From: Actinomycetota bacterium
GTDB taxonomy: Bacteria > Actinomycetota > UBA4738 > HRBIN12
Length of the DNA: 64,000 nt
Assembly (NCBI GenBank): GCA_035288045.1
Contig: DATEBA010000052.1
Span: forward strand, 3,788-67,787
Direction of reading: 5' to 3'
The first letter of the stretch is position 1. Each line of letters opens with the position of its first letter. Position numbers and translations under genes: made by a program. This document shows positions 6,652 to 48,111 of the stretch, piece after piece. The notes under the pieces are model-generated. The model searched no databases, was not told where the DNA came from, and saw nothing but the letters and a program-made list of their open reading frames with translations.

Positions 6652-8016
6652 ATGGAGGTGATGGAGACCATCCTCGACGCGGTCGGGCGAACGCCGCTCG
6701 TTCGCCTTCACAGCGTCACCCGTGGCGTCGCGCCCACGGTGCTGGCGAAGCTGGAGATGCTGAACCCCGGCGGAAGCGTCAAGGACCGCATCGGCCTGCG
6801 GATGATCGAGGCGGCCGAGCGCGAGGGCCTCCTCCGGCCGGGCGGGACGATCGTCGAACCCACGTCGGGTAACACCGGACACGGCCTCGCGATCGCCGCG
6901 GCCATCAAGGGATACAGGTGCATCTTCGTGATGCCCGACAAGATGAGCCAGGAGAAGGTCGCGCTCCTGCGCGCGTACGGAGCCGAGGTCATCATCACGC
7001 CTACCGCGGTTCCGCCCGGACACCCGGAGTCCTACTACCGTGTCGCAGACCGCCTGACCGAGGAGATCCCCGGAGCCTTCCAACCGAACCAGTACTTCAA
7101 CCAGGAGAACCCCGCGGCGCACCTCGCGTCGACCGGTCCTGAGATCTGGGAGCAGACCGAGGGCAAGATCGACGTGCTGGTCTCCGGTGTCGGAACGGGC
7201 GGGACGATCACCGGCACGGCTCGCTACCTGAAGGAGCGCAAGCCCGACGTGCTCGTGGTCGGCGCCGACCCTGAGGGCTCGATCTTCACGGGCGGCGACC
7301 CCCGCCCCTACTTGACCGAGGGCATCGGCGAGGACTTCTGGCCGGAGACGTTCGACCCGTCGGTCGTCGATCGGTGGGTTCGCGTCTCCGACCGCGACGC
7401 GTTCCGGTGCGCGCGAGCGATCACGCGCGAGGAGGGGATCCTCGCGGGCGGGTCGTCGGGGACCGCGATGTTCGCCGCGCTCGAGGTGGCCAGGGAGCTT
7501 CCCGCGTCAAAGCTCGTGGTGGTCATCTTCCCCGACACCGGCCGCAACTACCTCTCGAAGCTCTACTCCGACTCGTGGCTCCTCCAGTACGGGCTTTTGG
7601 AGCGCCCGGAGGCGGTGCGGGTGGAGGAGGTGCTCGGGCAGAAGGCCGCCGAGCTGCCACCGCTCATCACCGTGAACGCCCACGACAGGGTCCGGCAGGC
7701 GATCGATGTGCTTCAGGAGCACGGTATCTCGCAGGCGCCGGTGGTGCGCGACGGCTCCACGGAGGTGGCCGACTTCGTGGGCTCGATCCGAGAGGGGGAG
7801 CTGCTCGACCGGATCTTCCACGACCCCGATGCGCTCCAGGCCGACGTGGCGCAGGTGATGGGACCACCGATACCGATGGTCGAGCACGATCGACCGGTCG
7901 AGGCGGCGTTCGCGGAGCTCCAGCGCGCGTCGGCTGTCCTCGTCGCTCGGGGCGAGCGCGTCGAGGGCGTGCTTACGCGCAGCGACCTGCTCGAGTACCT
8001 CGCCCACCGGACCTAG
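6652..8016 (+). CDS. Cystathionine beta-synthase (PLP fold type II catalytic core plus a C-terminal CBS-domain pair)
   Basis: Has the 'GGSVKDR' PLP-lysine motif, 'TSGNTG' and the glycine-rich loop 'GVGTGGTITG'. The C-terminal ~120 aa form a CBS pair. Confidence 0.85.
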   Translation: MEVMETILDAVGRTPLVRLHSVTRGVAPTVLAKLEMLNPGGSVKDRIGLRMIEAAEREGLLRPGGTIVEPTSGNTGHGLAIAAAIKGYRCIFVMPDKMSQEKVALLRAYGAEVIITPTAVPPGHPESYYRVADRLTEEIPGAFQPNQYFNQENPAAHLASTGPEIWEQTEGKIDVLVSGVGTGGTITGTARYLKERKPDVLVVGADPEGSIFTGGDPRPYLTEGIGEDFWPETFDPSVVDRWVRVSDRDAFRCARAITREEGILAGGSSGTAMFAALEVARELPASKLVVVIFPDTGRNYLSKLYSDSWLLQYGLLERPEAVRVEEVLGQKAAELPPLITVNAHDRVRQAIDVLQEHGISQAPVVRDGSTEVADFVGSIREGELLDRIFHDPDALQADVAQVMGPPIPMVEHDRPVEAAFAELQRASAVLVARGERVEGVLTRSDLLEYLAHRT

Positions 8017-8017
8017 C

Positions 8018-8881
8018 GTGCGCAGCCTCGGTATCGACGTGGGAGTACGCAAGGGGCTAGACCTCGTTCTGCTCTCGGCGAGCGACCAGGACGAGGACAC
8101 GGCGATCAAGGCGACGCGCCGACGCGTGCCCCCGGAGGAGCTCCCCAGCATAGTCGCCGACCTCGCGCCCGACGTGGTAGGCATCGACTCCCCGCCCGAC
8201 TGGGGCTCCGACGGCCGTTCCCGGGCAGCGGAGCGCGCCCTCCGCGAATTCGGGATCCAGTCGTTCGGAACGCCTTCGGGCAACGGCGGCGGCCACCCCT
8301 TCTACGCGTGGATGGAGGTCGGCTTCCAGGCTTTCCGCGCGCTCTCGGAACGTTTCCCCCGGTACCGGAGCGGGCGCAACGTGCGCGGAACCGCCCTCGA
8401 GGTGTTCCCCCACGCGAGCTCCGTCGTGCTGGCCGGCTGTCTACCGCATCCCGAGGAGAGCAAGCGGAAGTGGCGAGCGGCGGTGCTTGGCGCGAACGGC
8501 GTCGACGCCAGTAAGCTCCGCTCGGCCGACCAGATCGATGCCGCCCTTGCGGCCCTCACGGGGATCCGGGCCCTGCGCGGGAGGTTCACCGCCCTGGGCG
8601 ACCCGCTCGAGGGCGTCATCGTCGTTCCCTCGCACGCTCTACCGCCGCCCCCGTACCGTCGCTGCGAGCGCCCGCCGCGTCGCGACCAGCAACCGCACCT
8701 GCCCGGCCTCACGCCCTGCGGGTGCGGCGACCCGTCGTGCACCGCGATGACCAGGGCCGAGTTCGCCCGGGGCCACGACGCGAAGCGCAAGCGGCTGCTC
8801 TGGATCCGGGCGCGCGACGGCGACGAGGCGGTCAGGGAGCTGGCGCGACGCGGCTGGGACCTGCCCCCGGAGATGCGATGA
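8018..8881 (+). CDS. DUF429 family protein (predicted RNase H-fold nuclease-like)
   Basis: The N-terminus 'MRSLGIDVG...' and overall length are typical of DUF429. It sits between cbs and the gamma-synthase gene, and its stop overlaps the next start as ATGA. Confidence 0.5.
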   Translation: MRSLGIDVGVRKGLDLVLLSASDQDEDTAIKATRRRVPPEELPSIVADLAPDVVGIDSPPDWGSDGRSRAAERALREFGIQSFGTPSGNGGGHPFYAWMEVGFQAFRALSERFPRYRSGRNVRGTALEVFPHASSVVLAGCLPHPEESKRKWRAAVLGANGVDASKLRSADQIDAALAALTGIRALRGRFTALGDPLEGVIVVPSHALPPPPYRRCERPPRRDQQPHLPGLTPCGCGDPSCTAMTRAEFARGHDAKRKRLLWIRARDGDEAVRELARRGWDLPPEMR

Positions 8882-10011
8882 GCGAAAGTCGCTTCCAGAC
8901 GCGTGCCGTTCACGTCGGCCAGGAGCCCGAGCCACAGCACGGCGCGGTGAACGTCCCGATCTTCCAGACGTCCACGTTCGCACAGCCCGCGGTCGGCAGG
9001 CCCCGCTCCCACGACTACGCGCGAGGCGGTAACCCCACGCGCGACGCGCTCCAGGCGGTGCTCGCCTCGCTCGAGGGCGGCGCCCACGCCTTCTGCTTCT
9101 CATCCGGCCTGGCGGCAGAGAGCACGCTCCTCCTCTGCCTGTCGCCCGGCGACCACGTCCTGCTCGGAGACGACGTGTACGGAGGGACGTACCGGCTGCT
9201 CGCCCGAGTACTCGACAGATGGGGCGTCGGCTTCTCGACGGTGGACATGCGGGAGGCGGACAACGTGCGGCAGGTGCTGACCGAAAGGACGAAGCTCGTG
9301 TGGGTCGAGACCCCGACGAATCCGCTGCTCAAGATCGTCGACGTAGCGGCGGTGGCATCGATCGCACGAGAGGCGGGAGCGCGAACCGTGGTCGACAACA
9401 CCTTCGCGACCCCCTACCTCCAGCGGCCGCTCGAGCTCGGCGCCGACGTCGTCGTGCACTCGGTGACGAAGTACCTAGGCGGTCACTCGGACCTCGTCGG
9501 CGGCGCGGTGATCACCAGCGACGAAGAGATGGCGGAGCGGCTCGGCTTCCTGGTGAACGCCGTCGGCGCAGTGCCCGGCCCGATGGACTGCTATCTCGCG
9601 CTCAGGGGCGTGAAGACGCTCGCGATCCGTATGGAGGCGCACTGCCGTGGCGCCCGCGCGGTGGCGGAGTTCCTCGCCGAGCACCCGAAGGTCTCGCGGG
9701 TTCACTACCCCGGCCTGCCCGGTCACCCCGGCCACGACATCGCGTCGCGCCAGATGTCCGACTTCGGCGGCATGGTCTCGTTCGAGGTGGGGAGCGCCGA
9801 GGAGGCGATCCGCGTGGCGGAGTCGACCGAGCTGTTCTTCCTCGCGGAGTCGCTCGGGGGCGTCGAGTCGCTGATCGAGGTTCCCGGGGCGATGACGCAC
9901 ATGAGCGTCGCCGGGTCACCGCTCGAGGTGTCCCCGACGCTCATCCGTCTGTCGGTCGGGATCGAGCATCCCGACGACCTCGTGCGCGACCTGGCTCGCG
10001 CGCTGGGGTAG
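8878..10011 (+). CDS. Cystathionine gamma-synthase/gamma-lyase family PLP enzyme (MetB/MetC/CGL-like)
   Basis: The start is set at the internal ATG 'MSESRFQTRAVH', which overlaps the DUF429 stop. 'VVHSVTKYLGGH' contains the PLP lysine of the Cys/Met metabolism PLP family. Confidence 0.85.
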   Translation: MSESRFQTRAVHVGQEPEPQHGAVNVPIFQTSTFAQPAVGRPRSHDYARGGNPTRDALQAVLASLEGGAHAFCFSSGLAAESTLLLCLSPGDHVLLGDDVYGGTYRLLARVLDRWGVGFSTVDMREADNVRQVLTERTKLVWVETPTNPLLKIVDVAAVASIAREAGARTVVDNTFATPYLQRPLELGADVVVHSVTKYLGGHSDLVGGAVITSDEEMAERLGFLVNAVGAVPGPMDCYLALRGVKTLAIRMEAHCRGARAVAEFLAEHPKVSRVHYPGLPGHPGHDIASRQMSDFGGMVSFEVGSAEEAIRVAESTELFFLAESLGGVESLIEVPGAMTHMSVAGSPLEVSPTLIRLSVGIEHPDDLVRDLARALG

Positions 10012-34418: not shown

Positions 34419-34838
34419 ATGCGGCATCACACCAAGATGCGCCTGATGGCGCTCACCATGATTGCGCTGGTCGCGCTGATGCCAGTCGCACCGGCCCGGG
34501 CGCACACCGCCCGACCGGTCGCCGATTGGGTCTGCGACATCCCATGGGCGAAGAGCACATACCAGCTGAGGAGGCTCATCAAGTGCGCCGCGCACCGCTG
34601 GAAGGTTCCCGGCGGCGCGCACAAAGCGCTCCGCGTCGCCCGATGCGAGTCGGGATTCGACCCCCACGCGAAGGGCGGCGGCAACGGCGGAGTATTTCAG
34701 CAGCGCCTCGTCTACTGGCCCGGGCGCGCGAAGCACTACGGCTTCAAGGGCTGGTCTGTCTACAACGGTCGGGCGAACGTGATCGTCTCGATCCGGATGG
34801 CTCACAAGGTCGGCTGGAGCCCCTGGTCCTGCGCCTGA
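34419..34838 (+). CDS. Secreted transglycosylase-like domain protein (Rpf/SLT-like)
   Basis: The signal peptide is 'MRLMALTMIALVALMPVAPARA'. 'ARCESGFDPHAKGGGNGGVFQQ' resembles the catalytic Glu region of the transglycosylase-like domain. The start is trimmed from ORF 34320. Confidence 0.55.
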   Translation: MRHHTKMRLMALTMIALVALMPVAPARAHTARPVADWVCDIPWAKSTYQLRRLIKCAAHRWKVPGGAHKALRVARCESGFDPHAKGGGNGGVFQQRLVYWPGRAKHYGFKGWSVYNGRANVIVSIRMAHKVGWSPWSCA

Positions 34839-37849: not shown

Positions 37850-38551
37850 GTGAACCCTCGGCCGGTCCCGGAATGTCGGCGCGCCTCCGACCGCCCCGGC
37901 TATGCTGCCGCCGTCGTGACGGTCCTCCTCCTCATAAGGCACGCGGAGTCCACCGCGAACGACCGAGGGCTGCTCACCGGGTGGAGCCCGGGGGTGCACC
38001 TGTCGGATCGCGGCAGGGAGCAGGCGAAGGCGTTGAGCGAGCGCCTGAGCGCGGTTCCGCTGGCCGAGATCTACGCGAGCCCGCTGGAGAGGTGCCGCGA
38101 GACCGCCGCCGCTCTGGCGTCGGGAAGGGGCATCCGGGTGCGTCTCGATCGCGACCTCGGCGAGGTGCGCTACGGGAGCTGGACCGGTCGCCCCCTCAAA
38201 CAGCTCGCCCGCACGAAGCTGTGGAAGTTGGTGCAGCTGGCGCCCTCGCGAGCCCGGTTCCCCGACGGGGAGAGCCTGTCGGAGGCTCAGCAGCGGGTCC
38301 TGGACGCGGCCGAGCGGATCGCATCTCGGCACCCGAGACGAGTGGTTGCGGTCGTGTCGCACTGTGACCCAATCCGGCTGCTCCTCTCCCACCTCGCGGG
38401 CGCGCACATCGACCAGTTCCAGCGGATGGTCGTCGACCCTGCGTCGGTTTCGGCGGTGGCGCTGGGTGACGACATCCCCAGGATCCTTCGCGTGAACCAC
38501 ACCGGGGACCTCGCCGGCCTCGTCCCCCGAACTCGGCGCGTGCGAGGATAG
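37850..38551 (+). CDS. Histidine phosphatase family protein (phosphoglycerate-mutase-like, MSMEG_4193-type)
   Basis: 'LLLIRHAESTAN' is the RHG catalytic motif, and 'VSHCDPIRLL' contains the second catalytic His. The start may be the GTG at 37916. Confidence 0.7.
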   Translation: MNPRPVPECRRASDRPGYAAAVVTVLLLIRHAESTANDRGLLTGWSPGVHLSDRGREQAKALSERLSAVPLAEIYASPLERCRETAAALASGRGIRVRLDRDLGEVRYGSWTGRPLKQLARTKLWKLVQLAPSRARFPDGESLSEAQQRVLDAAERIASRHPRRVVAVVSHCDPIRLLLSHLAGAHIDQFQRMVVDPASVSAVALGDDIPRILRVNHTGDLAGLVPRTRRVRG

Positions 38552-38555
38552 CCGC

Positions 38556-39059
38556 GTGGAGCTGGATCCCGTCGACCGGATCACGGCAGACGCCGTCGGC
38601 GAGCCCGGACAGCGGACGTTCTACCTCCAGGCTCGTCAGGGCGACCGCCTGGTCACCCTGCTGGTCGAGAAGGAGCAGGTCCGGCAGCTCGCCGCCTCGG
38701 TGGTAGAGATCCTCTCTCGCGTCGCTCGCGACACGGAGGGCGGGCCGGGCGAGGAGGAGCTGCGGCTGGAAGCGCCGCTCGAGCCTCTCTTCCGCGCCGG
38801 GCGTCTGTACATCGGCTACGAGGAGGACCGGGATCGCCTCCTGCTCGACATCGAGGAGCTGGTGCCGGAGGAAGGCGAGGGAGCCGCCGAGCGCGAGCCG
38901 GCCCGAGTGCGCATCTGGGCGACCCGGGAGCAGATGCTCGCGTTCTCTCGCCACGGCGCACAGGCCGTCTCGCGCGGCCGTCCCGCTTGCCAGTTCTGCG
39001 GCAACCCGATCGACCGGGAGGGCCACACGTGCCCCGCGATGAACGGCCATCGGGGCTGA
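38556..39059 (+). CDS. DUF3090 family protein with a C-terminal Cys-rich motif
   Basis: The product starts 'MELDPVDRITADAVGEPGQRTFYLQARQGDRLVTLLVEKEQV' and ends 'CQFCGNPIDREGHTCP'. The family and its gene context are conserved in Actinobacteria. Confidence 0.65.
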   Translation: MELDPVDRITADAVGEPGQRTFYLQARQGDRLVTLLVEKEQVRQLAASVVEILSRVARDTEGGPGEEELRLEAPLEPLFRAGRLYIGYEEDRDRLLLDIEELVPEEGEGAAEREPARVRIWATREQMLAFSRHGAQAVSRGRPACQFCGNPIDREGHTCPAMNGHRG

Positions 39060-39076
39060 TCCCGGCCGGGGGGGAG

Positions 39077-39772
39077 GTGCTCGACCTCCTCGCGATGGGC
39101 TCCATCGGCGTCCTCGGCGTCCTTCCGGGCTCGTCCAACTTCACGTTCCTCGCCCGCGTCGAGGGCGACGGTCTGGAGGCGCTGGCCGTCTACAAGCCGA
39201 GGGAGGGCGAGTCGCCGCTCTGGGACTTCCCCTTGGGCACGCTCCACCGCCGCGAGGTCGCGGCCTTCGTCGTGGCCCGGTTTCTCGGGTGGCCGACCGT
39301 TCCTCCGACCTTGCTGCGAGACGGTCCGGCGGGGCCCGGTTCGGTCCAACTGTTCGTCGAGTTCGACCCCGACCAGCACTACTTCACGCTTCACGAGGAT
39401 CGCGGGGAGGACTTCCGGGAGATAGCGGCGTTCGATGTCGTCGTCAACAACGCCGACCGGAAGGCCGGACACTGCCTCCTCGGTCGCGACGGGCGGATCT
39501 TCGCGATCGACCACGGGACCTGCTTCAACGTCGACCCAAAGCTCCGCACGGTGGTCTGGGACTTCGTGGGCGAGGCGATACCGGACCGGCTGCTCGAGGA
39601 CGTCGCCGCGCTCGCGAACGAGCTGAGGGCGGGCGACCTGCGGGCCACACTCGGCGACCTGCTCGGGCCCGACGAGATCGATGCGACCGCCAGAAGGGCG
39701 GAGGGGCTAGTCGCGGAAGGGCGATTCCCCGGCCCGGGACCCGGTCGCCCCTTCCCGTGGCCCGTCGTTTGA
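39077..39772 (+). CDS. SCO1664 family protein (conserved actinobacterial protein of the phosphomutase/DUF3090 cassette)
   Basis: A GTG start is placed at 39077 after a G-rich ribosome-binding site. 'GSSNFTFLARVEGDG' and 'VVNNADRKAGHCLL...IDHGTCF' match the family. Confidence 0.6.
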   Translation: MLDLLAMGSIGVLGVLPGSSNFTFLARVEGDGLEALAVYKPREGESPLWDFPLGTLHRREVAAFVVARFLGWPTVPPTLLRDGPAGPGSVQLFVEFDPDQHYFTLHEDRGEDFREIAAFDVVVNNADRKAGHCLLGRDGRIFAIDHGTCFNVDPKLRTVVWDFVGEAIPDRLLEDVAALANELRAGDLRATLGDLLGPDEIDATARRAEGLVAEGRFPGPGPGRPFPWPVV

Positions 39773-40299
39773 GGACCTTTCGGATCGCGGAGATCGGCTC
39801 CCCGATCGGGAGGCTCGTCGTCGCCGGGACCGAGCGCGGCGTCGCAAGGATCGTCTTCCCGGAGGAGCTGGGGGCGCTTGAGGAGCTCGCCGACGAGGGT
39901 GAGGTGGTCGAGGACCGCCGGGCGCTCGCGCCCGTCCTTCGGGAGCTCCGCGAGTACTTCTTGGGCCGCCGCAGTAGTTTCACGGTGGGCGTGGACCTGT
40001 CGAGGGTGCGCGAGTTCGCCAGGCGCGCGCTCGAAGCCACCGCTCGCATCCCGTATGGGTCGGTCGCCACCTACGCTGAGGTGGCCGCCCGCGCGGGTAG
40101 CCCTCGCGGTGCGCGCGCGGCCGGCAACGCCCTTGCAGGCAACCCAGTTCCGATCCTTGTTCCGTGCCACCGCGTGGTGCCCGCCGGGGGAGGCATCGGC
40201 AGCTACGGCGGCCACGAAGAACGCAAAGAGTTCCTGCTCCGCCTGGAGGGATCGCTGGAAGGGTCGCTCCGGGAGGAACCCGCTACCCTCGGGGCGTGA
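39769..40299 (+). CDS. ogt: Methylated-DNA--protein-cysteine methyltransferase (Ogt)
   Basis: The 'PCHRVV' active-site motif and 'IPYGSVATYAEVA' are present. The TTG start overlaps the SCO1664 stop as TTGA. Confidence 0.8.
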   Translation: MRTFRIAEIGSPIGRLVVAGTERGVARIVFPEELGALEELADEGEVVEDRRALAPVLRELREYFLGRRSSFTVGVDLSRVREFARRALEATARIPYGSVATYAEVAARAGSPRGARAAGNALAGNPVPILVPCHRVVPAGGGIGSYGGHEERKEFLLRLEGSLEGSLREEPATLGA

Positions 40300-40313: not shown

Positions 40314-40871
40314 ATGCCCGGTCCGGCCGCGACGGCGGGAGCCGCGCTCGGTGGCGTGACGCTCGCGCACTGCCTCGCCTACCTAGCCGCACTCCCCGCG
40401 GAGGCGGAACGTCATTCCCACATGACGGCGACGGGCCACGGCTCCTTCCCTATGCTCGTCGCGGTCGCCTCCGCCGCCGCGGGGGCGGCGCTGCTCGCGG
40501 TGAGCCTTCGAGCCCTCGGGCCCGCGGCAGCGCTCGGCGTCGTGCCGACCGCCGCACGCCTGGCGGCTATCCAGGTGCCCGGGTTCGCCCTGCTCGAGCT
40601 CATCGAGCGGCGTATGGGAGTGGGGTCCGCGCTCGCCGACCCGGCCGTCCGCGTCGGGCTGGTCCTCCAGGTCCTGGTCGCGCTCGGAGCCGCCCTCCTG
40701 CTCCGCGGCGTCGAGCGAACGGTCGGCGCGGTCGCCCGGCGTCGCCGTCGTGATGGGCGAGCCGTTCTCGCCCTCCCGCGACGCGGTTCGACGATCTCGC
40801 TCGCACCGCGTGCAACCCTCCTCGCCGCAGCTCCCAGACGCGCTCCCCCGCTGCCGCTCGCAACCACCTGA
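40314..40871 (+). CDS. Possible Ala-rich membrane protein (hypothetical)
   Basis: The internal ATG of ORF 40164..40871 starts the product 'MPGPAATAG'. Hydrophobic helices include 'HCLAYLAALP', 'MLVAVASAAAGAALLAVSL' and 'GLVLQVLVALGAALLL'. It could be a high-GC artifact. Confidence 0.25.
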   Translation: MPGPAATAGAALGGVTLAHCLAYLAALPAEAERHSHMTATGHGSFPMLVAVASAAAGAALLAVSLRALGPAAALGVVPTAARLAAIQVPGFALLELIERRMGVGSALADPAVRVGLVLQVLVALGAALLLRGVERTVGAVARRRRRDGRAVLALPRRGSTISLAPRATLLAAAPRRAPPLPLATT

Positions 40872-40912
40872 CACAGGGCCGCCACGCGGCCCTCGAGCGG
40901 AAGGTAACGAGC

Positions 40913-41359
40913 ATGGACAAGAGATGGATAGCGGTTGCCGTCGGCGTCGTCGCGCTCGTCGGGATCTTCCTCGCGGTTCGCCCGCGCGACGACGCCGACG
41001 TCCCGAAAGCCCCGACATCGACCGAGACTCCCTCCCCGAGCGGTCACGAGGACGGCGAGATGACGATGAAGCCGTCGGCGACGATGCCGGCAGAAGACGA
41101 GGTGCCGGTGGTGGTCGGAGTCCGAGCCGGGAAGGTGACGGGACCCGGCACGGCGACCGTTAAGGTCGGCGACCGGCTGCACCTCACCGTGACGTCGGAC
41201 GTCGTCGACGAGGTCCACGTGCACGGCTACGACCTGACGGCCGACGTCGGCCCCGACGAACCCGCGCACGTAGAACTCGTGGCCGCGACCGCCGGGATCT
41301 TCGAGGTGGAGCTCGAGGGCTCGGGCCTCCTCCTGGTTCGGATCCGGGTCGAGCCGTGA
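40913..41359 (+). CDS. Signal-anchored cupredoxin-like domain protein
   Basis: The N-terminal transmembrane anchor is 'IAVAVGVVALVGIFLAV'. The C-terminal beta domain 'KVGDRLHLTVTSDVVDEVHVHGYDL...GIFEVELEGSG' resembles the cupredoxin_1-type fold. Confidence 0.5.
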   Translation: MDKRWIAVAVGVVALVGIFLAVRPRDDADVPKAPTSTETPSPSGHEDGEMTMKPSATMPAEDEVPVVVGVRAGKVTGPGTATVKVGDRLHLTVTSDVVDEVHVHGYDLTADVGPDEPAHVELVAATAGIFEVELEGSGLLLVRIRVEP

Positions 41360-42723
41360 GAAGACGGCTCCTGCCGATCGCCACCGCGGGAGTGCTCTTC
41401 CTGAACGACGCTCGCCCGGCCCTCGCCCACGGCCTGGGCGGACGGCTCGACCTGCCGGTGCCGAGATGGTTGTTCGTCTACGGCGCGGCGGTCGCCCTCG
41501 TGATCTCCTTCGTGGCCCTCGCGGTGCTCTGGCGTTCGCCCAGGCTCGAGGGACGAAAGGAGCGTGATGGGCACGACGGCCCGCTGCAGTCGCTCCTCAG
41601 CTCGACGATCGTCGAGTGGACCCTTCGCGCGGTCGGGCTCGCCCTGTTCCTCCTCGTCGTGGTGGCAGCCCTCGGCGGTGTCGACGAGCCGACCGACAAC
41701 GTCGCACCCGTGTTCGTGTACGTATGGCTGTGGGTAGGGCTCGCGTTCGCCTGCGCACTCCTCGGGAACCTCTGGGCGACCCTCTCGCCGTTCGACACGG
41801 CGGCACGCCTGCTCGCGATCGGCGACGAGCCACGCCGCGCGTATCCGAAGGCCTGGGGCAAGTGGCCGGCGGCGCTCCTCCTCCTGGGCTTCACCTGGCT
41901 CGAGCTGGTCGCGCCCTTCGGCGCGACGCCCCGCACGCTCGGTGTCGCGATCGCCGCGTACACCCTGATCACGCTAACGGGCATGGCCGTCTTCGGCCGC
42001 GGCGAGTGGAATCGCCGCGGCGAGGCATTCGCGGTGCTCTACGACCTCCTGGGCAGGCTCGCGCCGTTCGCGAGGGACGGGGACGGCCGTGTGGTTCGCC
42101 GCCCGGTGCTCGGGGGGCTCCCTTCGCTCCGCCCCGAACCGGGGCTCCTGGCGTTCGTGGGTGTGCTGCTCGGCTCGACCACGTTCGACGGGGTGTCGCG
42201 CACGAGCGCGTGGACCTCGCTCGTCGGCGGCCTCGGGTCGGTGTCGAGAACGCTAGCCGGCACCGCCGGGCTCATCGCGGTGACCATGCTCGTCACGGGC
42301 GCCTTCTCGCTAGCCATGGCGTCGGCCTCGCTCGTCTCCGGCGAGCGATGGCACCCGCTCGCCGTCCGCTTCGCGCACAGCCTGGTTCCCATCGCGTTCG
42401 CGTACATGGTCGCCCACTACTTCTCGCTTCTCGTCCTGGAGGGCCAGCTGGGGCTGCGCCTCGTGTCCGATCCCTTCGGGCTCGGATGGAACCTGCTCGG
42501 CACCGCCGGCTGGAGCGTGAACCTCGGGCTCCTCTCGGTCGGCGTGATCTGGTACGTGCAGGTCGTCGCGATCGTGGCGGGACACATAGGCGGCGTCGTC
42601 CTCGCGCACGACCGCGCCGTGGCCTCGTTCCCGGCCCGCGTCGCGATGCGCACCCAGTACGCGCTCCTGGCCGTCATGATCCTCTTCACCGCGATCGGGC
42701 TGCTGCTTCTCTCGGGCGGATGA
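41356..42723 (+). CDS. Polytopic integral membrane protein with an N-terminal signal peptide (uncharacterised family)
   Basis: 'MRRRLLPIATAGVLFLNDARPALAHG' is followed by about 10-12 hydrophobic helices over 455 aa. The start overlaps the upstream stop as ATGA. Confidence 0.55.
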   Translation: MRRRLLPIATAGVLFLNDARPALAHGLGGRLDLPVPRWLFVYGAAVALVISFVALAVLWRSPRLEGRKERDGHDGPLQSLLSSTIVEWTLRAVGLALFLLVVVAALGGVDEPTDNVAPVFVYVWLWVGLAFACALLGNLWATLSPFDTAARLLAIGDEPRRAYPKAWGKWPAALLLLGFTWLELVAPFGATPRTLGVAIAAYTLITLTGMAVFGRGEWNRRGEAFAVLYDLLGRLAPFARDGDGRVVRRPVLGGLPSLRPEPGLLAFVGVLLGSTTFDGVSRTSAWTSLVGGLGSVSRTLAGTAGLIAVTMLVTGAFSLAMASASLVSGERWHPLAVRFAHSLVPIAFAYMVAHYFSLLVLEGQLGLRLVSDPFGLGWNLLGTAGWSVNLGLLSVGVIWYVQVVAIVAGHIGGVVLAHDRAVASFPARVAMRTQYALLAVMILFTAIGLLLLSGG

Positions 42724-42908
42724 TCGCCCACCAGGGAGGCTGGGACGAGGTGCTTCTTCCCGCCCTCGTGGTGCTCGGCCTCGTCGCGTCCACGCGGTGG
42801 CGCCGGCGGCCCCAACGTCCCAGCAGCGGGCGGTGCGCGTACTGTGGGAAGGAGATGGCGCACGGCCAGTGGAGATGCGCGTCGTGCGGGTTCCGGGGGG
42901 GATCGTGA
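42720..42908 (+). CDS. Small protein (62 aa) with one transmembrane helix and a C-terminal CxxC...CxxC zinc ribbon
   Basis: The product is 'MIAHQGGWDEVLLPALVVLGLVASTRWRRRP...CAYCGKEMAHGQWRCASCGF'. Its ATG overlaps the upstream stop as ATGA. Confidence 0.4.
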   Translation: MIAHQGGWDEVLLPALVVLGLVASTRWRRRPQRPSSGRCAYCGKEMAHGQWRCASCGFRGGS

Positions 42909-43306
42909 AAGGCTCGCTGGTGTCCCTTGCGCTCGTCGTTGTCGCGTGCACCGCTGCGGGGCGCGCGACGCCCGAGACGACGGCCTCAGGGGTGCTCGGC
43001 ATCGTCACGGGCTCCGACGCGAGAGAGACCCTCGCGGCGCTCTGCGAGCTCCGCGGCTCGACCGGCCCATCGGCGGCAGAGGCCCTGTTCTTCGATCGCG
43101 CCCACGAGCGGCTGCACGAGATCGCGGCCGCCGTCGAGCAGGTCGACCGCGCGGCGGCGGGTCGGCTCCTCGAGGCAAAGGAGCGGGTCGAGGCTGGCAT
43201 CGGCACGCTCCCGCATTCGTTCGCGAGCAACATGGAGGGGCTGCTCGAAGCGACCCGGGCGGGGCTAGCCGAGCTGGGCCTCCCATCGCCCGGCTGCGAC
43301 GTATGA
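42905..43306 (+). CDS. Lipoprotein (helical, uncharacterised)
   Basis: A GTG start gives 'MKGSLVSLALVVVACTAAG' with a lipobox 'VVAC'. The start overlaps the upstream stop as GTGA. Confidence 0.5.
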   Translation: MKGSLVSLALVVVACTAAGRATPETTASGVLGIVTGSDARETLAALCELRGSTGPSAAEALFFDRAHERLHEIAAAVEQVDRAAAGRLLEAKERVEAGIGTLPHSFASNMEGLLEATRAGLAELGLPSPGCDV

Positions 43307-43330
43307 ACGACGAGGCGAGATGATGGTGAC

Positions 43331-44275
43331 GTGGTGAGAAGGATCCCCGCGGTCCTGGCGCTGCTCCTACTGGCGGCATCCTGCACAGGGTCCGAGCCGA
43401 CCGGCCAGTCCCCTCCGCCCGAACAGGTGGAGCTCGTCGCCCAGGTGGCGAGCGCGGATCTGTTCGCCGGACAGCCCCAGCGCGTGCTGGTCGGGATGTT
43501 CGCGAACGACGGTCGGATCGTGACCTTCGGCACGGTCCGGTTCTCCTTCTCCTACGTCGGCACCGCCGAGGACCCGGTCGACCCGGCCGAACCGGGGCCG
43601 GCCGCAGAGGCCCGGTACATCCCCACCCCGGGGACGCCGAGCGGCGAGGGCGGAGCCGCGTCCCTGTCGCAGCCGTCGGAGGCGCGCGGTGTCTACCAGG
43701 CGACCGACGTGACGTTCCCGATGGCCGGCTTCTGGCAGGTGACGGTCGACACCGACGTCGAGGGTGTGGGCACGGCAAGGGCGACGTCCGCGTTCGAGGT
43801 GCGCTCCGAGCCGCAGATCCCGGCGCCCGGTGACGACGTCCTCCCGACCGAGAACCTCACCCTCGACTCCAAGGGCGTCCCCGCCGGAGCGATCGACTCG
43901 ATCGCAGCCGCGGGAGCCGACATCCCAGACCCCGAGCTCCACACCTCCACGATCGCCGACGCGCTCGACGAGAGGAAGTCCATGGTCGTCGTCTTCGCCA
44001 CGCCGGCGTACTGCATCAGCCGCTTCTGCGGCCCGGTCGTGTCCGCGATCCAGGATCTCGCCGACCGGTTCGGAGGCTCCGCCGTCTACATCCACGTCGA
44101 GATCTGGCGCGACTACGAGAATGGGATCATCAACGACGCGGCGGCCGAGTGGCTCCAGCTCCCGAGCGGAGACCTCACCGAGCCGTGGATCTACATGATC
44201 GACGACCGCGGCGTGATAGTCGACCGATGGAACTCGCTGTTCGACCCCGCCGAGCTCGCCGCGTACCTGCAGTGA
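43331..44275 (+). CDS. Lipoprotein with an N-terminal Ig-like/YtkA-like domain and a C-terminal thioredoxin-like (SCO/TlpA-like) domain
   Basis: The lipobox is 'LLLAASC'. The C-terminal 'VVVFATPAYCISRFCGP...IYMIDDRGVIV' is thioredoxin-fold-like with a CX4C motif. Confidence 0.55.
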   Translation: MVRRIPAVLALLLLAASCTGSEPTGQSPPPEQVELVAQVASADLFAGQPQRVLVGMFANDGRIVTFGTVRFSFSYVGTAEDPVDPAEPGPAAEARYIPTPGTPSGEGGAASLSQPSEARGVYQATDVTFPMAGFWQVTVDTDVEGVGTARATSAFEVRSEPQIPAPGDDVLPTENLTLDSKGVPAGAIDSIAAAGADIPDPELHTSTIADALDERKSMVVVFATPAYCISRFCGPVVSAIQDLADRFGGSAVYIHVEIWRDYENGIINDAAAEWLQLPSGDLTEPWIYMIDDRGVIVDRWNSLFDPAELAAYLQ

Positions 44276-44315: not shown

Positions 44316-45212
44316 ATGGGCGGCGATGCGCACGGCTCGCGGGTAGATGCCCCGTCCGAGACCGCGAGGGGGATCCGAGCGATCAAGTTCTCGCTGCTCG
44401 GCCTCGGGGCGACCGCGATCCTCCAGGCCGCGATCGTCGCGCTCTCGGGGTCGGTGGCGCTGCTCGCCGACACGATCCACAACCTGTCCGATGCGCTGAC
44501 GGCGATCCCCCTTTGGATCGCGTTCGGGCTGGGACGGCGGCCACCGACGCGACGCTACCCCTACGGGTTCCATCGGGCCGAGGATCTCGCCGGCATCCTC
44601 ATAGTGCTGGCCATCCTCGCGTCCGCGGCGCTCGCCGGATGGCAGGCGGTCATGCGCCTCGCCGAGCCGCACCCAATCGAGCACACGTCTTGGGTGGCGG
44701 CTGCGGGCGCGCTGGGCTTCCTCGGGAACGAGCTCGTAGCCGAGTACCGGATCCGGGTCGGACGGCGGATCGGCTCGGCCGCGCTGGTCGCCGACGGCCA
44801 GCACGCGAGGACCGACGGGCTGACCTCGCTCGGCGTCGTCGCCGGAGCGATCGGTGCCGCGCTCGGCTACCCGGCCGCCGACCCGATCGCTGGCCTCGCG
44901 ATCACGGTGGCGATCCTTTCCGTGCTGAAGGATGCCGGCCGTCAGGTCGTGCACCGGATCATGGATGGGACGGAGGAGTCGACGATCGTGATGTTCGAGG
45001 AGGTCGCGGCCGCGGTTCCCGGCGTCGAGCACGTCACAGACGTGCGCGCGCGCTGGGCCGGGCACCGGCTCATCGGAGAGCTCTCGATCGACGTGGACCG
45101 GTCGCTGACCGTCGAGGAGGGGCACGCGATCTCCGAACGGGTCGAAGCCGAGCTCCGGGCGGCCATCCCGAGCCTGCGCCACGCCACCGTCCACGTCGAG
45201 CCGCACGGGTAG
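44316..45212 (+). CDS. Cation diffusion facilitator (CDF) family metal efflux transporter
   Basis: The transmembrane motifs are 'LLADTIHNLSDAL' and 'HARTDGLTSLGV'. A C-terminal cytoplasmic domain is present. Confidence 0.8.
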   Translation: MGGDAHGSRVDAPSETARGIRAIKFSLLGLGATAILQAAIVALSGSVALLADTIHNLSDALTAIPLWIAFGLGRRPPTRRYPYGFHRAEDLAGILIVLAILASAALAGWQAVMRLAEPHPIEHTSWVAAAGALGFLGNELVAEYRIRVGRRIGSAALVADGQHARTDGLTSLGVVAGAIGAALGYPAADPIAGLAITVAILSVLKDAGRQVVHRIMDGTEESTIVMFEEVAAAVPGVEHVTDVRARWAGHRLIGELSIDVDRSLTVEEGHAISERVEAELRAAIPSLRHATVHVEPHG

Positions 45213-45926: not shown

Positions 45927-46691
45927 GTGGCCGGGGTCCCGGCAACCATCCGAGCGCTGGCCGCCGACACCAGGTCGGGGGCTTCGGAGATCGCGGAACG
46001 AGCCGCGGAGGCTCTCTGCGTCATCACGCCCGACGAGCTCCCGGACGCGGTCGCCGCCCTCGTCGGAGGGCACCCCTCGATGGCCCCGCTGTGGCGGCTG
46101 GCCTCGGAGGCGATGTACGCCCCGTCGCCCTCGATCGGCGCCTCACGGTTCCTCGAGGCTCTGGCCGAAGATCGACGCGGACCCCCCACCCTCGCACCCC
46201 ACCTTCCCGAGAGGATCCTCACGATCTCGTGGTCCTCGGGCGTCGCCGAGACGCTTCGACTCCGCCGACCGGAAACGGTCCTCTGCATGGTCTCCGAGCC
46301 GGGCGGCGAGGGGTCCCGCGCGATGCGATCGCTCAGCGACGTGTGCGACGCCCGGCTCGTGGACGACCTTCGGGCCATCCGAGAGGTCCGCGCCGACGCG
46401 GTCCTCGTGGGCGCCGACGCCGTGGCCCCCGACCACATCGTCAACAAGATGAAGACCCGGGCACTGTGCGAGGCGGCGTCGGGCCGAGGGATCCCGTCGT
46501 ACGCGGTCGGTGGCAGGACGAAGCTCGTCGACGTCACCTTGCCTCTCTCCGGCCCCTTCGAGCGGGTGCCGCTCGAACTCGTGTCGGCCGTCGTCGTGGG
46601 AGACGCCCTGCTCGGCCCGGTCGCGGTGCGCGCCGCGGCGGAGGCGGCTCCGCTCCACCCCGCGCTGCGCCGGCTCCTGCCCGACCGTTGA
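45927..46691 (+). CDS. eIF-2B alpha/beta/delta-like family protein (sugar-phosphate isomerase-like, short form)
   Basis: 'VLVGADAVAPDHIVNKMKTRALCEAASGRGIPSYAV' matches the IF-2B domain core. Confidence 0.5.
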   Translation: MAGVPATIRALAADTRSGASEIAERAAEALCVITPDELPDAVAALVGGHPSMAPLWRLASEAMYAPSPSIGASRFLEALAEDRRGPPTLAPHLPERILTISWSSGVAETLRLRRPETVLCMVSEPGGEGSRAMRSLSDVCDARLVDDLRAIREVRADAVLVGADAVAPDHIVNKMKTRALCEAASGRGIPSYAVGGRTKLVDVTLPLSGPFERVPLELVSAVVVGDALLGPVAVRAAAEAAPLHPALRRLLPDR

Positions 46692-46708
46692 CGCCGCTCC
46701 CCCGTACC

Positions 46709-47626
46709 ATGGGAGCGATGACCGACGACCTCCCGCCCGCTCCCCCGGCGATCACCTGCTACCGGCACCCAGAGGAGCCGACGGGCGTGCGCTGTACCCG
46801 CTGCGAGCGGCCGATCTGCCCGGCATGCATGATCCCCGCCCCGGTGGGGTACCAGTGCCCGGAGTGCGTCGCCGCCGCCCGCAAGGAGTTCCGGCTCGGA
46901 CCGGCCCGGCGCGCCCGGTCGATGGCACGGACGCCGGCCACCAGGGTGCTCCTGGCGGCGATCCTGGCCGCCTTCGTCCTGGAGATCGCGCTCGGCGGCC
47001 CGCGGGCGCTCCTGAACGGCCCGTCGGGGCAGCGCCTCTTCGATCTCGGCGGTCTATACGCGCCGGCGATCGCGTTCGACGGGCAGTACTGGCGCCTGCT
47101 CTCATCGATGTTCCTGCACGCGGGGCTCCTGCACGTAGGCTTCAACTCCTACGCGCTCTGGCTCTTCGGAAGCGCGGTCGAGGGCGTGTTCGGGCGCGCG
47201 CGCTTCCTCGCTATCTACTTCGTCACGGGACTCGTCGCCGGTGCCTCCTCGTACGCGTTCGGCGCGACGCAAGCCCTCGGCGTGGGGGCCTCAGGCGCGA
47301 TCTTCGGGGTCTTCGGCGCGTTCGTGGCCTACAACTACCGGCGGCGTCATCTCGCGCTCGCCTCGGCGAACCTCCGCTCCGCGATCACGATCGTGCTGCT
47401 GAACGTCTTCCTCGGCCTTTCGATCCCCGGGATCGACCTCCGCGCGCACATCGGGGGCTTCGTCGCGGGTCTCGCGGCAGGTGTCGTCTCCGACGAGGTC
47501 GGGCCGCTCGACCTGCGCCGACTCCTGCACTGGGGCGGGCTGCTCGCGATCGCGCTCTTGGGCGTCGGTCTCGTGATGTGGCGAACGGCCCAGCTGCGTT
47601 CGCTGCCGTTCGGCCCGGGCCTCTAG
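46709..47626 (+). CDS. Rhomboid family intramembrane serine protease with an N-terminal zinc-ribbon
   Basis: The start is trimmed to 'MGAMTDDL'. The zinc ribbon is 'CYRHPEEPTGVRCTRCERPICPAC'. The catalytic 'GASGAIFG' and 'AHIGGF' motifs are present. Confidence 0.8.
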   Translation: MGAMTDDLPPAPPAITCYRHPEEPTGVRCTRCERPICPACMIPAPVGYQCPECVAAARKEFRLGPARRARSMARTPATRVLLAAILAAFVLEIALGGPRALLNGPSGQRLFDLGGLYAPAIAFDGQYWRLLSSMFLHAGLLHVGFNSYALWLFGSAVEGVFGRARFLAIYFVTGLVAGASSYAFGATQALGVGASGAIFGVFGAFVAYNYRRRHLALASANLRSAITIVLLNVFLGLSIPGIDLRAHIGGFVAGLAAGVVSDEVGPLDLRRLLHWGGLLAIALLGVGLVMWRTAQLRSLPFGPGL

Positions 47627-47658: not shown

Positions 47659-48111
47659 TCAGCCGGGACGGAACGGCGGCAGGCCGTCCGAGGCCTGCGA
47701 CACGACGACCGGCCCGGAGCCGGTCAGCTCGGCGATCGTCACCGCCGCGCGGTTGTAGCCGTCGCGACTCCAGGACTCGACGACGTCGGCCACCGCACCG
47801 CCGGAGTCCACGACCACGAGGGTCGGCACGACCTCGATGCCGAAGGCGTTCGAAACCGGGTAGGGGTCCACGTCGGGGAGCGCTCGGATGCCCGTCCCGT
47901 GCTCGGCGCCGAACGCCGCGATGTCGCCGGCCGCGTCCTGCCCGATCCCGGTGACGAGCCCCGGGAACGCCCGGTCGACGACCTCGATCTTGGGGGCGCT
48001 CATCTGGCACACCGGGCAGGTCACCTTGAAGAACCAAAGGACCGACGGACCGGCGACGAAGTCGACGCCCGCAACCGGGGGCGCGTGCTCGCCCACTGCG
48101 ATCGCGCTCAC
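47659..48111 (-). CDS. Thioredoxin-like redoxin (AhpC/TSA or TlpA-like thiol-disulfide oxidoreductase)
   Basis: 'VLWFFKVTCPVCQ' is a CxxC motif after beta-strand 1, at 150 aa. Confidence 0.65.
   Translation of the reverse strand: MSAIAVGEHAPPVAGVDFVAGPSVLWFFKVTCPVCQMSAPKIEVVDRAFPGLVTGIGQDAAGDIAAFGAEHGTGIRALPDVDPYPVSNAFGIEVVPTLVVVDSGGAVADVVESWSRDGYNRAAVTIAELTGSGPVVVSQASDGLPPFRPG

Follow-up and report, generated by a model that had tools for sequence, protein, structure and literature searches.

Two adjacent envelope modules at an actinobacterial locus and their candidate role in copper trafficking

Does a tight run of envelope genes in an actinobacterial genome form a single metal-handling system, and which metal would it handle? 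The question is raised by a 64,000-nt stretch (nt, nucleotides) of contig DATEBA010000052.1 (assembly GCA_035288045.1), a metagenome contig of actinobacterial origin with a GC content of ~70%, which we refer to in its entirety as the window. Between an MGMT gene (39769-40299) and a CDF gene (44316-45212), six tightly packed plus-strand genes, here called g0 to g5, encode membrane proteins and lipoproteins. An earlier note on this DNA, made from the sequence alone, had treated the span as one undescribed unit for periplasmic metal or redox handling. We find that it consists of two adjacent envelope modules and not of one conserved unit. Module A comprises g0-g3, and module B is made up of g4-g5, joined at some loci by the CDF gene. 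The two modules most likely traffic copper to membrane or extracytoplasmic copper enzymes, above all to heme-copper cytochrome oxidase, a reading that we hold at roughly even odds (about 0.5), while a general role in extracytoplasmic metal handling is likely.

The genes of the span and the gene that follows it are listed below with their positions in the window (aa, amino acids; TM, transmembrane).

40314-40871, plus strand: g0, a 185-aa membrane protein with ~3-4 TM helices
40913-41359, plus strand: g1, 148 aa, with a TM anchor at the N-terminus, then a Pro/Thr/Ser linker and, at the C-terminus, a beta domain of ~85 residues
41356-42723, plus strand: g2, 455 aa, with a signal peptide and 10 TM helices
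42720-42908, plus strand: g3, 62 aa, a single-pass TM helix followed by CxxC...CxxC
42875 (alternatively 42905) to 43306, plus strand: g4, a lipoprotein
43331-44275, plus strand: g5, a 314-aa lipoprotein
44316-45212, plus strand: a CDF cation exporter (Cation_efflux and ZT_dimer, TIGR01297)

The genes that the earlier note described are all present on the plus strand where it had placed them, and g0, which lies inside the same span, had gone undescribed. Stop and start codons overlap as GTGA (g1/g2), ATGA (g2/g3) and GTGA (g3/g4); the sequences given for them earlier (ATGA, ATGA and GTGA) are corrected here. The start of g4 is ambiguous, as a GTG at 42905 would give a 4-nt overlap with g3 and an ATG at 42875 a 34-nt overlap; the latter start yields the signal peptide MRVVRVPGGIVKGSLVSLALVVVAC, which is of a more canonical lipoprotein type and resembles those of g4 homologues. 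A gap of 24 nt separates g4 from g5, and an ATGA at 43303 opens just a six-codon open reading frame. A promoter and terminator scan found no useful signal.

Related loci were collected in a search with a six-sequence alignment that covered the 80 closest genomes, all of them metagenome-assembled genomes (MAGs), and presence was counted by tblastn of the window proteins against 86 loci with a g2 homologue. By this count g1 is present in 69 loci, g3 in 12, g0 in 4 (~15 by family profile), g5 in 3, g4 in 2 and the CDF exporter in a single one, which is the window's own contig. The gene for g1 stands immediately upstream of g2 in 62-69 of the 86 loci, drawn from Acidimicrobiia, Thermoleophilia and Actinomycetes, and a 4-nt stop/start overlap between the two is possible in 40 of 64, so the arrangement is more than chance. 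The pair also occurs in Variovorax, in Nonomuraea, in a low-GC lineage and on plasmids of mycobacteria, Pseudonocardia and Rhodococcus. The g1-g2 pairing is ancient and tight.

Close relatives share the flanks of the span, with genes for a histidine phosphatase, DUF3090, the SCO1664 family and MGMT on one side and for a rhomboid protease and a PQQ propeller on the other. In this syntenic slot, three related loci (L094-L096) have g4-g5 without g0-g3, and another (L001) has g1-g2-g3 without g4-g5. Loci that combine both modules are limited to L002, which is the contig of the window itself, and L007. Modules A and B are therefore separable, and the single unit proposed earlier is not supported. 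The CDF gene does follow the cluster as the earlier note had it, and its product is a clear family member (TIGR01297, 230 bits against a cut-off of 82; Cation_efflux, 143 bits; ZT_dimer, 64.6 bits). It follows g5 again in L096 but is missing in L094, L095, L007 and every further locus with g2, which makes it an occasional neighbour of module B and not a conserved partner of module A.

Such variable slot contents would also be expected if modules A and B and the CDF gene were unrelated insertions at a variable spot between MGMT and rhomboid, with no pathway in common, and the scarcity of loci with both modules fits that explanation. We nevertheless consider chance juxtaposition unlikely, because one locus (L076) has g1-g2-g3-like genes and a g5-like gene within a single cytochrome oxidase operon, because non-orthologous proteins of the thioredoxin fold (SCO1, TlpA, thioredoxin) recur beside g1-g2, and because g3 and g4 overlap in the window.

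Genomic company of the g1-g2 pair

In 27 of ~100 loci, genes related to copper are found no more than 6 kb from g2, among them SCO1 in 9, Caa3_CtaG in 8-9, and also CopC, COX3 and P1B-type ATPases. The strongest evidence comes from three Acidimicrobiia loci. In L076, genes for g1, g2, a g3-like protein, a UbiA-family protein, a g5-like lipoprotein, COX2, COX1, COX3 and COX4 follow one another on the plus strand, mostly with overlaps; the g5-like gene is directly upstream of COX2, which carries a cytochrome c domain, and the UbiA-family gene occupies what we take to be the position of heme O synthase. In L051 and L056 the order is COX2, COX1, COX3, CtaG, g1, g2. Two different cox arrangements, one of them including a g5 relative, thus tie both modules to cytochrome c oxidase.

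Copper also recurs in other settings. A PCuAC fusion protein adjoins g2 in Sulfitobacter, the hmoCAB region for a copper monooxygenase encloses SigC-g1-g2 in both M. dioxanotrophicus and M. chubuense NBB4, M. gallinarum has a copper island that combines g1-g2 with CopC, a CsoR-like regulator, CtaG, TlpA and DUF305, and a heavy-metal P-type ATPase gene comes after g2 in Haloferax volcanii. The metal theme, with copper delivery as one example, that the earlier note had read from the composition of the cluster is thus supported by context, through SCO1, CtaG, PCuAC, CopC, hmoCAB and cytochrome oxidase operons beside g1-g2.

Genes for other metals raise the alternative of an uptake system for iron or another divalent metal, like EfeUOB or P19/FetP-FetM, in which the ExExE motif of g1 would bind or oxidize the metal and g2 would be the permease. 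In those systems, too, a membrane permease has a periplasmic partner that is associated with copper and contains a beta domain; a protein that joins an Iron_transport (P19/FetP) domain to DUF7350 is encoded beside g2 in Haloferax volcanii and Haladaptatus, a ZIP gene lies downstream of g1-g2 in L098, CbtA is found near the pair in M. rufum, a CDF exporter adjoins the cluster here, and g1 has an invariant Glu cluster. Copper-specific neighbours are, however, far more numerous, and the contexts are mostly copper- and not iron-related; g2 matches no Pfam family, FTR1 and the other known iron permease families included, and the CDF exporter is not a conserved partner. P19/FetP proteins are themselves copper-binding, which we count as a further point against uptake of iron. 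On balance this explanation appears rather improbable.

Where g1 is missing, other proteins take its place. Poly-His extracytoplasmic proteins replace it in L097 and L101, and the L097 partner, which overlaps g2 from upstream, is homologous to the C-terminal domain of the Sulfitobacter PCuAC fusion protein. In Solirubrobacterales without g1 (L054, L066, L071, L075, L079 and L081), g2 is followed by the gene for a conserved FEWHDHRIHWM protein of ~255 aa (for example L066:7467-8240), which has a signal peptide, a beta-rich domain that contains the invariant motif FEWHDHRIHWMSP, a C-terminal TM anchor and a terminal EAW, has no Pfam family match and may substitute for g1 as the metal-binding partner. 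In each replacement the substitute is another extracytoplasmic His-rich protein and putatively also a metal binder. A weaker relative of the Solirubrobacterales protein is encoded near g2 on a Pseudonocardia plasmid (L089).

Several further neighbours are recorded here as observations in their own right. A gene for a 'fused MFS/spermidine synthase' lies near g1-g2 on an M. rufum plasmid (L093, 10267-11811) and in loci L098/L099 of an unrelated low-GC lineage (7729-10008), where it adjoins the ZIP transporter gene. Secreted right-handed beta-helix proteins (Pfam Beta_helix) are encoded beside g2 in Nonomuraea gerenzanensis (L104, 4426-6507) and Haladaptatus (L006, 8316-9821); the Nonomuraea gene overlaps g1-g2, cleavage of its product at a predicted ALA|HE site would leave a His at the new N-terminus, and immediately downstream the opposite strand carries genes for an ABC-2 permease and an ATPase. 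A right-handed beta-helix fold of this kind is also that of NosD in the NosDFY system. On alphaproteobacterial plasmids of Neorhizobium (L004) and Sulfitobacter (L005), a lone g2 homologue stands amid genes for nicotinate dehydrogenase or molybdenum hydroxylase, with 6-hydroxynicotinate reductase and Liv-type ABC transporter genes also nearby, and the association recurs in both genera.

Proteins of the two modules

The polytopic protein g2 is a member of a large family that is absent from Pfam and NCBIfam, has no solved relative and carries only a doubtful legacy name. Neither g2 nor 32 diverse relatives gave a Pfam, NCBIfam or PDB sequence match (relatives searched against Pfam at E <= 1), which agrees with the earlier note's view that the family is not a recognizable one. 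The AlphaFold2 (AF2) model (pLDDT 91.2, pTM 0.89) has the signal peptide that the note had noticed and 10 TM helices, within its range of 10-12, and a Foldseek search of the model against the PDB found no similar solved fold (best TM-score 0.18). No internal repeat was detectable when the N-terminal and C-terminal halves were compared. The family comprises 4818 clusters at 50% identity (E <= 1e-3) from several actinobacterial classes, Rhizobium, Sulfitobacter, Variovorax, Ralstonia, many haloarchaea and low-GC lineages, and a literature search found no paper describing the g1-g2 family. Some g2 homologues (P0134, P0192, P0200 and P0222) have long C-terminal extensions that are predicted to be extracellular; these contain BNR/sortilin/Ycf48-like propeller repeats, TPR repeats or 440-aa tails without a Pfam match, are uninformative on function and include no zinc-ribbon fusion.

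The legacy name, 'fenitrothion hydrolase', would make g2 an enzyme, an organophosphate hydrolase. NCBI PGAP gives it to many MAG relatives of g2, and the name presumably traces to FedA of Burkholderia sp. NF100. A B. cenocepacia gene bears the same label (PMC3417382). No NCBIfam model matches g2, no catabolic genes occur in any neighbourhood examined, and a family of this breadth, haloarchaea included, is too widespread for a pesticide hydrolase; we regard the enzymatic explanation as very improbable.

Seven residues of g2 are invariant: H25, E183, D278, H354, H410, H418 and M441. An A-H-G...DLPxP motif is present in 235 of 261 homologues, with Ala preceding the His in 220 of the 235, and given this conserved A-H and its position after an AxA-type cleavage site, mature g2 should start with the invariant H25. 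An N-terminal His is typical of histidine-brace Cu(II) sites. Counts of Lys and Arg in the loops fit an N-terminus-out topology, which would put E183 and D278 where helices end on the outer side and bury H354, H410 and M441 in the membrane, with H418-D419-R420 at the inner end.

Its partner g1 appears to be a membrane-anchored, truncated cupredoxin-like domain and is proposed as the extracytoplasmic metal-capture partner. The cupredoxin-like assignment made in the earlier note is supported by the family profile, which finds the CuA domain of ba3 oxidase in the PDB at E = 6e-4, along with N2OR and nitrosocyanin, and by two relatives, P0274 and P0282, which reach 27.7 and 28.8 bits on Cupredoxin_1 (PF13473; cut-off 27); g1 itself has no Pfam match at E <= 0.1. 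In comparison with cupredoxins (CuA of oxidase subunit II and of N2OR, the EfeO Cup domain, PF13473, and nitrosocyanin), the profile of g1 lines up with the initial half of CuA and sets its first His against a CuA His ligand, but the domain is cut to ~85 residues and lacks the C-terminal loop with Cys and Met ligands, having HxH and ExExE instead. Across 48 homologues the invariant residues are V101-H-V-H-G105, G128, E131, E133 and E135, in the motifs (D/E)xVHVHGYD and FEVELE, the latter with ELH in place of ELE in mycobacteria.

These residues bear on a further alternative, that g2 is a membrane redox protein, either heme-b-binding or a cupric or ferric reductase, that exchanges electrons with g1. 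The invariant His residues in TM8 and TM9 (H354 and H410), together with H418 and M441, are compatible with this, as are a partner of the cupredoxin fold, a HiPIP gene nearby in Haloferax volcanii and the location of the pair inside respiratory operons. Yet g1 is devoid of the Cys and Met found in copper sites for electron transfer, the TM His of g2 number only three, poly-His proteins replace g1 in some lineages, and the invariant N-terminal His and outer acidic residues are a better fit to metal binding, so that a redox role for g2 seems improbable.

Two smaller proteins accompany the pair in module A. The g0 protein has no Pfam or NCBIfam match, and a GC3-based gene caller chose an antisense open reading frame at its position; a homologous family is nevertheless kept directly upstream of g1 in ~15 other genomes, which argues that g0 is a real plus-strand gene. 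Its family conserves the motifs AHxLAY, HxYL, F..(Q)E..ER and a C-terminal R(G/A)PP, and g0 would act as an accessory component of module A. In g3, an outside N-terminal AHQGGW motif precedes the TM helix, which leads through a basic patch to a putative zinc ribbon, CxxC...CxxC, in the cytoplasm; this layout matches the TM helix and ribbon noted earlier. The motif (L/I)AHxG(G/H)W with a TM helix comes directly after g2 in 20 of the 86 loci, with or without the ribbon, and a variant, AHGTG(L/I)DD, in 2 more; orthologues with the ribbon occur in 12, and CxxC...CxxC is kept in those of the closest clade. The conserved part of g3 is thus the outside AHxGGW motif and the TM helix, not the zinc ribbon, for which the L001 orthologue gives a sub-threshold match to Zn_ribbon_3 (E = 1.3e-4, 21.7 bits against a cut-off of 27). 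The N-terminal motif of g3 resembles the mature N-terminus of g2, AHGxGG. In haloarchaea, as on Haloferax volcanii pHV4 (L090, 5375-5632), g2 is overlapped at its start by a small gene without likeness to g1; the 85-aa product of this gene begins with a CxxC segment, has its TM helix at the C-terminus and loosely mirrors g3.

In module B, g4 is judged from its sequence to be a helical lipoprotein. Its lipobox is VVAC (...LALVVVAC), with a Cys that is invariant among homologues, and C47, D64, H67, H71, E78, D81 and C131 are invariant across five of them; its sole Pfam match is a weak one to DUF7797. In L094-L096 g4 is always directly upstream of g5. The g5 lipobox is ...LLLLAASC, its Cys being nearly invariant, and the AF2 model (pLDDT 89.5) contains an Ig-like beta-sandwich (~35-158) and a thioredoxin-like domain (~218-313) in which C228-x4-C233 directly precedes a helix (233-247) and the order of secondary structures fits a thioredoxin-type topology. 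Foldseek matches, which span the Ig-like domain only, are to Ig-like folds that include the copper proteins CrdA and PcoC (TM ~0.55), and a thioredoxin match in the PDB is weak (E = 0.3). Sub-threshold Pfam matches in the g5 family are to YtkA in 19 and to Thioredoxin_2 in 16 of 38 members; g5 itself scores 21.3 bits on YtkA (PF13115), below the cut-off of 25.9. Its invariant residues are C228, C233, H204, H255 and E257.

Copper trafficking as the favoured reading

The cluster is best read as a non-homologous analogue of CopC/CopD-YcnIJ together with Sco/CtaK-type factors. YcnJ (CopC-CopD-YtkA) and YcnI serve copper import for oxidases (PMC13344008), and CtaK (YtkA), Sco, TlpA and Caa3_CtaG act in the assembly of CuA and CuB (PMC9145763). 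CopC/CopD systems (B. subtilis YcnJ and YcnI; E. coli YobA-YebZ-YebY) and the g1-g2 pair both join an extracytoplasmic beta-sandwich domain for metal binding (putatively so in g1) to a polytopic protein with conserved TM His; removal of the signal peptide leaves CopC and YcnI with His as their first residue, as is predicted for g2, a link to oxidase metallation is common to both, and the sub-threshold YtkA matches of g5 recall the YtkA domain on the CopC/CopD side (PMC13344008, PMC12362106). They differ in that the N-terminal His is here on the membrane protein g2 and that its partner g1 is a truncated cupredoxin and not a CopC fold. Membership of CopD (PF05425), CopC (PF04234) or DUF1775 was rejected, with no Pfam match for g1, g2 or 32 diverse g2 relatives (E <= 1).

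Like g2, Caa3_CtaG (PF09678) is a multi-TM protein with conserved His and Asp that is encoded at the end of cta operons. The g1-g2 genes directly follow it in L051 and L056 and adjoin it in Solirubrobacterales, so that the two families co-occur and do not replace each other, and hhalign of the g2 family against seven CtaG sequences gave a probability of homology of just 0.05%. With Sco1/SenC (PF02630), TlpA, PCuAC and CtaK, g5 shares lipoprotein form and a predicted thioredoxin-like domain in which a Cys pair is accompanied by conserved His, and the sub-threshold YtkA matches of its Ig-like domain recall CtaK; its Cys pair is CX4C where that of Sco is CxxxC. Although not members of the CopC/CopD, CtaG or SCO1 families, the proteins of the cluster probably act like them. 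Trafficking by a metal-binding partner and a membrane protein would here be built from unrelated proteins.

A path for copper can be proposed on this basis. Tethered at the outer face of the membrane, g1 would capture copper through its HxH and Glu cluster and pass it to g2, whose N-terminal His and outer acidic residues E183 and D278 could form the entry site. From there H354, H410, M441 and Q402 of g2 may carry the metal inward, or sideways to oxidase assembly factors, with the H418-D419-R420 triad at the inner end of the path. Accessory subunits would be g3, with its outside AHxGGW motif and TM helix, and g0, with its TM His/Glu motifs. In module B, the CX4C/His thioredoxin-like domain of g5 may form or load a CuA-type site, like Sco, TlpA and CtaK. 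The analysis shows how the genes are built, their folds, their conservation and their neighbourhoods; we infer, within this scheme, the identity of the metal, the direction of transport, the physical complexes and any cooperation of modules A and B.

Several results weigh against this reading. Metal binding and transport by these families are predictions from context, conservation and analogy. Housekeeping genes make up most of what surrounds g2 in the 80 genome loci, and in a Pfam census of 150 downstream neighbours they again predominate, SCO1 and redoxin families excepted; cases of SCO1 and CtaG are clustered in Solirubrobacterales and Acidimicrobiia and so are not independent events. The 64-kb window has no cytochrome oxidase or copper-enzyme gene, other metals are represented in some contexts (P19/Fe2+-transport-like genes in haloarchaea, ZIP, CbtA and the CDF exporter here), and modules A and B are mostly found apart (L001, L094-L096). 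At the level of the proteins, the g1 family has no conserved Cys or Met of the kind that ligates type-1 or CuA copper, and the Ig-like domain of g5 (35-158) has no invariant His or Met. The earlier description of g5 as an Ig-like domain joined to a CX4C thioredoxin-like domain is retained. By profile comparison g5 is not a member of the SCO family: it has no Pfam SCO1 match, and hhalign against nine SCO1 sequences gave a probability of 4%.

A bolder version, which we put forward as speculative, is that g1-g2 with g0 and g3 form an unrecognized machine for copper acquisition or insertion, widespread in bacteria and archaea and based on a membrane fold without a solved relative, in which the N-terminal His of g2, once signal peptidase has exposed it, and the HxH of g1 would together make an intermolecular histidine-brace resembling the CuB site of PmoB and feed both heme-copper oxidases and copper membrane monooxygenases. 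To our knowledge, copper delivery to respiratory oxidases and other copper enzymes is poorly understood, and only CopCD/YcnJ and CcoA-type importers have been studied. If the g2 family does traffic copper, it would supply a missing part of oxidase biogenesis in many actinobacteria, could account for the unexplained genes between the hmoCAB (copper) and smo (iron) alkane monooxygenases of Mycolicibacterium chubuense NBB4, and would offer targets open to testing in Haloferax volcanii, Variovorax, mycobacteria and other tractable hosts.

Flanking genes of the window

The conserved syntenic block upstream of the span (37916-40299, plus strand) carries the genes for histidine phosphatase, DUF3090, the SCO1664-family protein (TIGR03843) and MGMT, and an ECF sigma factor gene is inserted before MGMT in several relatives (L001, L094 and L096). 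Downstream, the rhomboid protease gene (46688-47626, plus strand) encodes an N-terminal zinc-finger-like segment with a weak match to zf-B_box. It is followed on the minus strand (47659-48111) by a gene for a thioredoxin/AhpC-like protein of 150 aa, in which the Cys motif is CPVC, and a beta-propeller protein of PQQ-like type is encoded there too; the genes for rhomboid, the thioredoxin/AhpC-like protein and the PQQ-like propeller are all kept in syntenic relatives. Elsewhere in the window, a 139-aa open reading frame (34419-34838, plus strand) without a Pfam match has a predicted signal peptide ending ARA|HT, cleavage of which would expose an N-terminal His.

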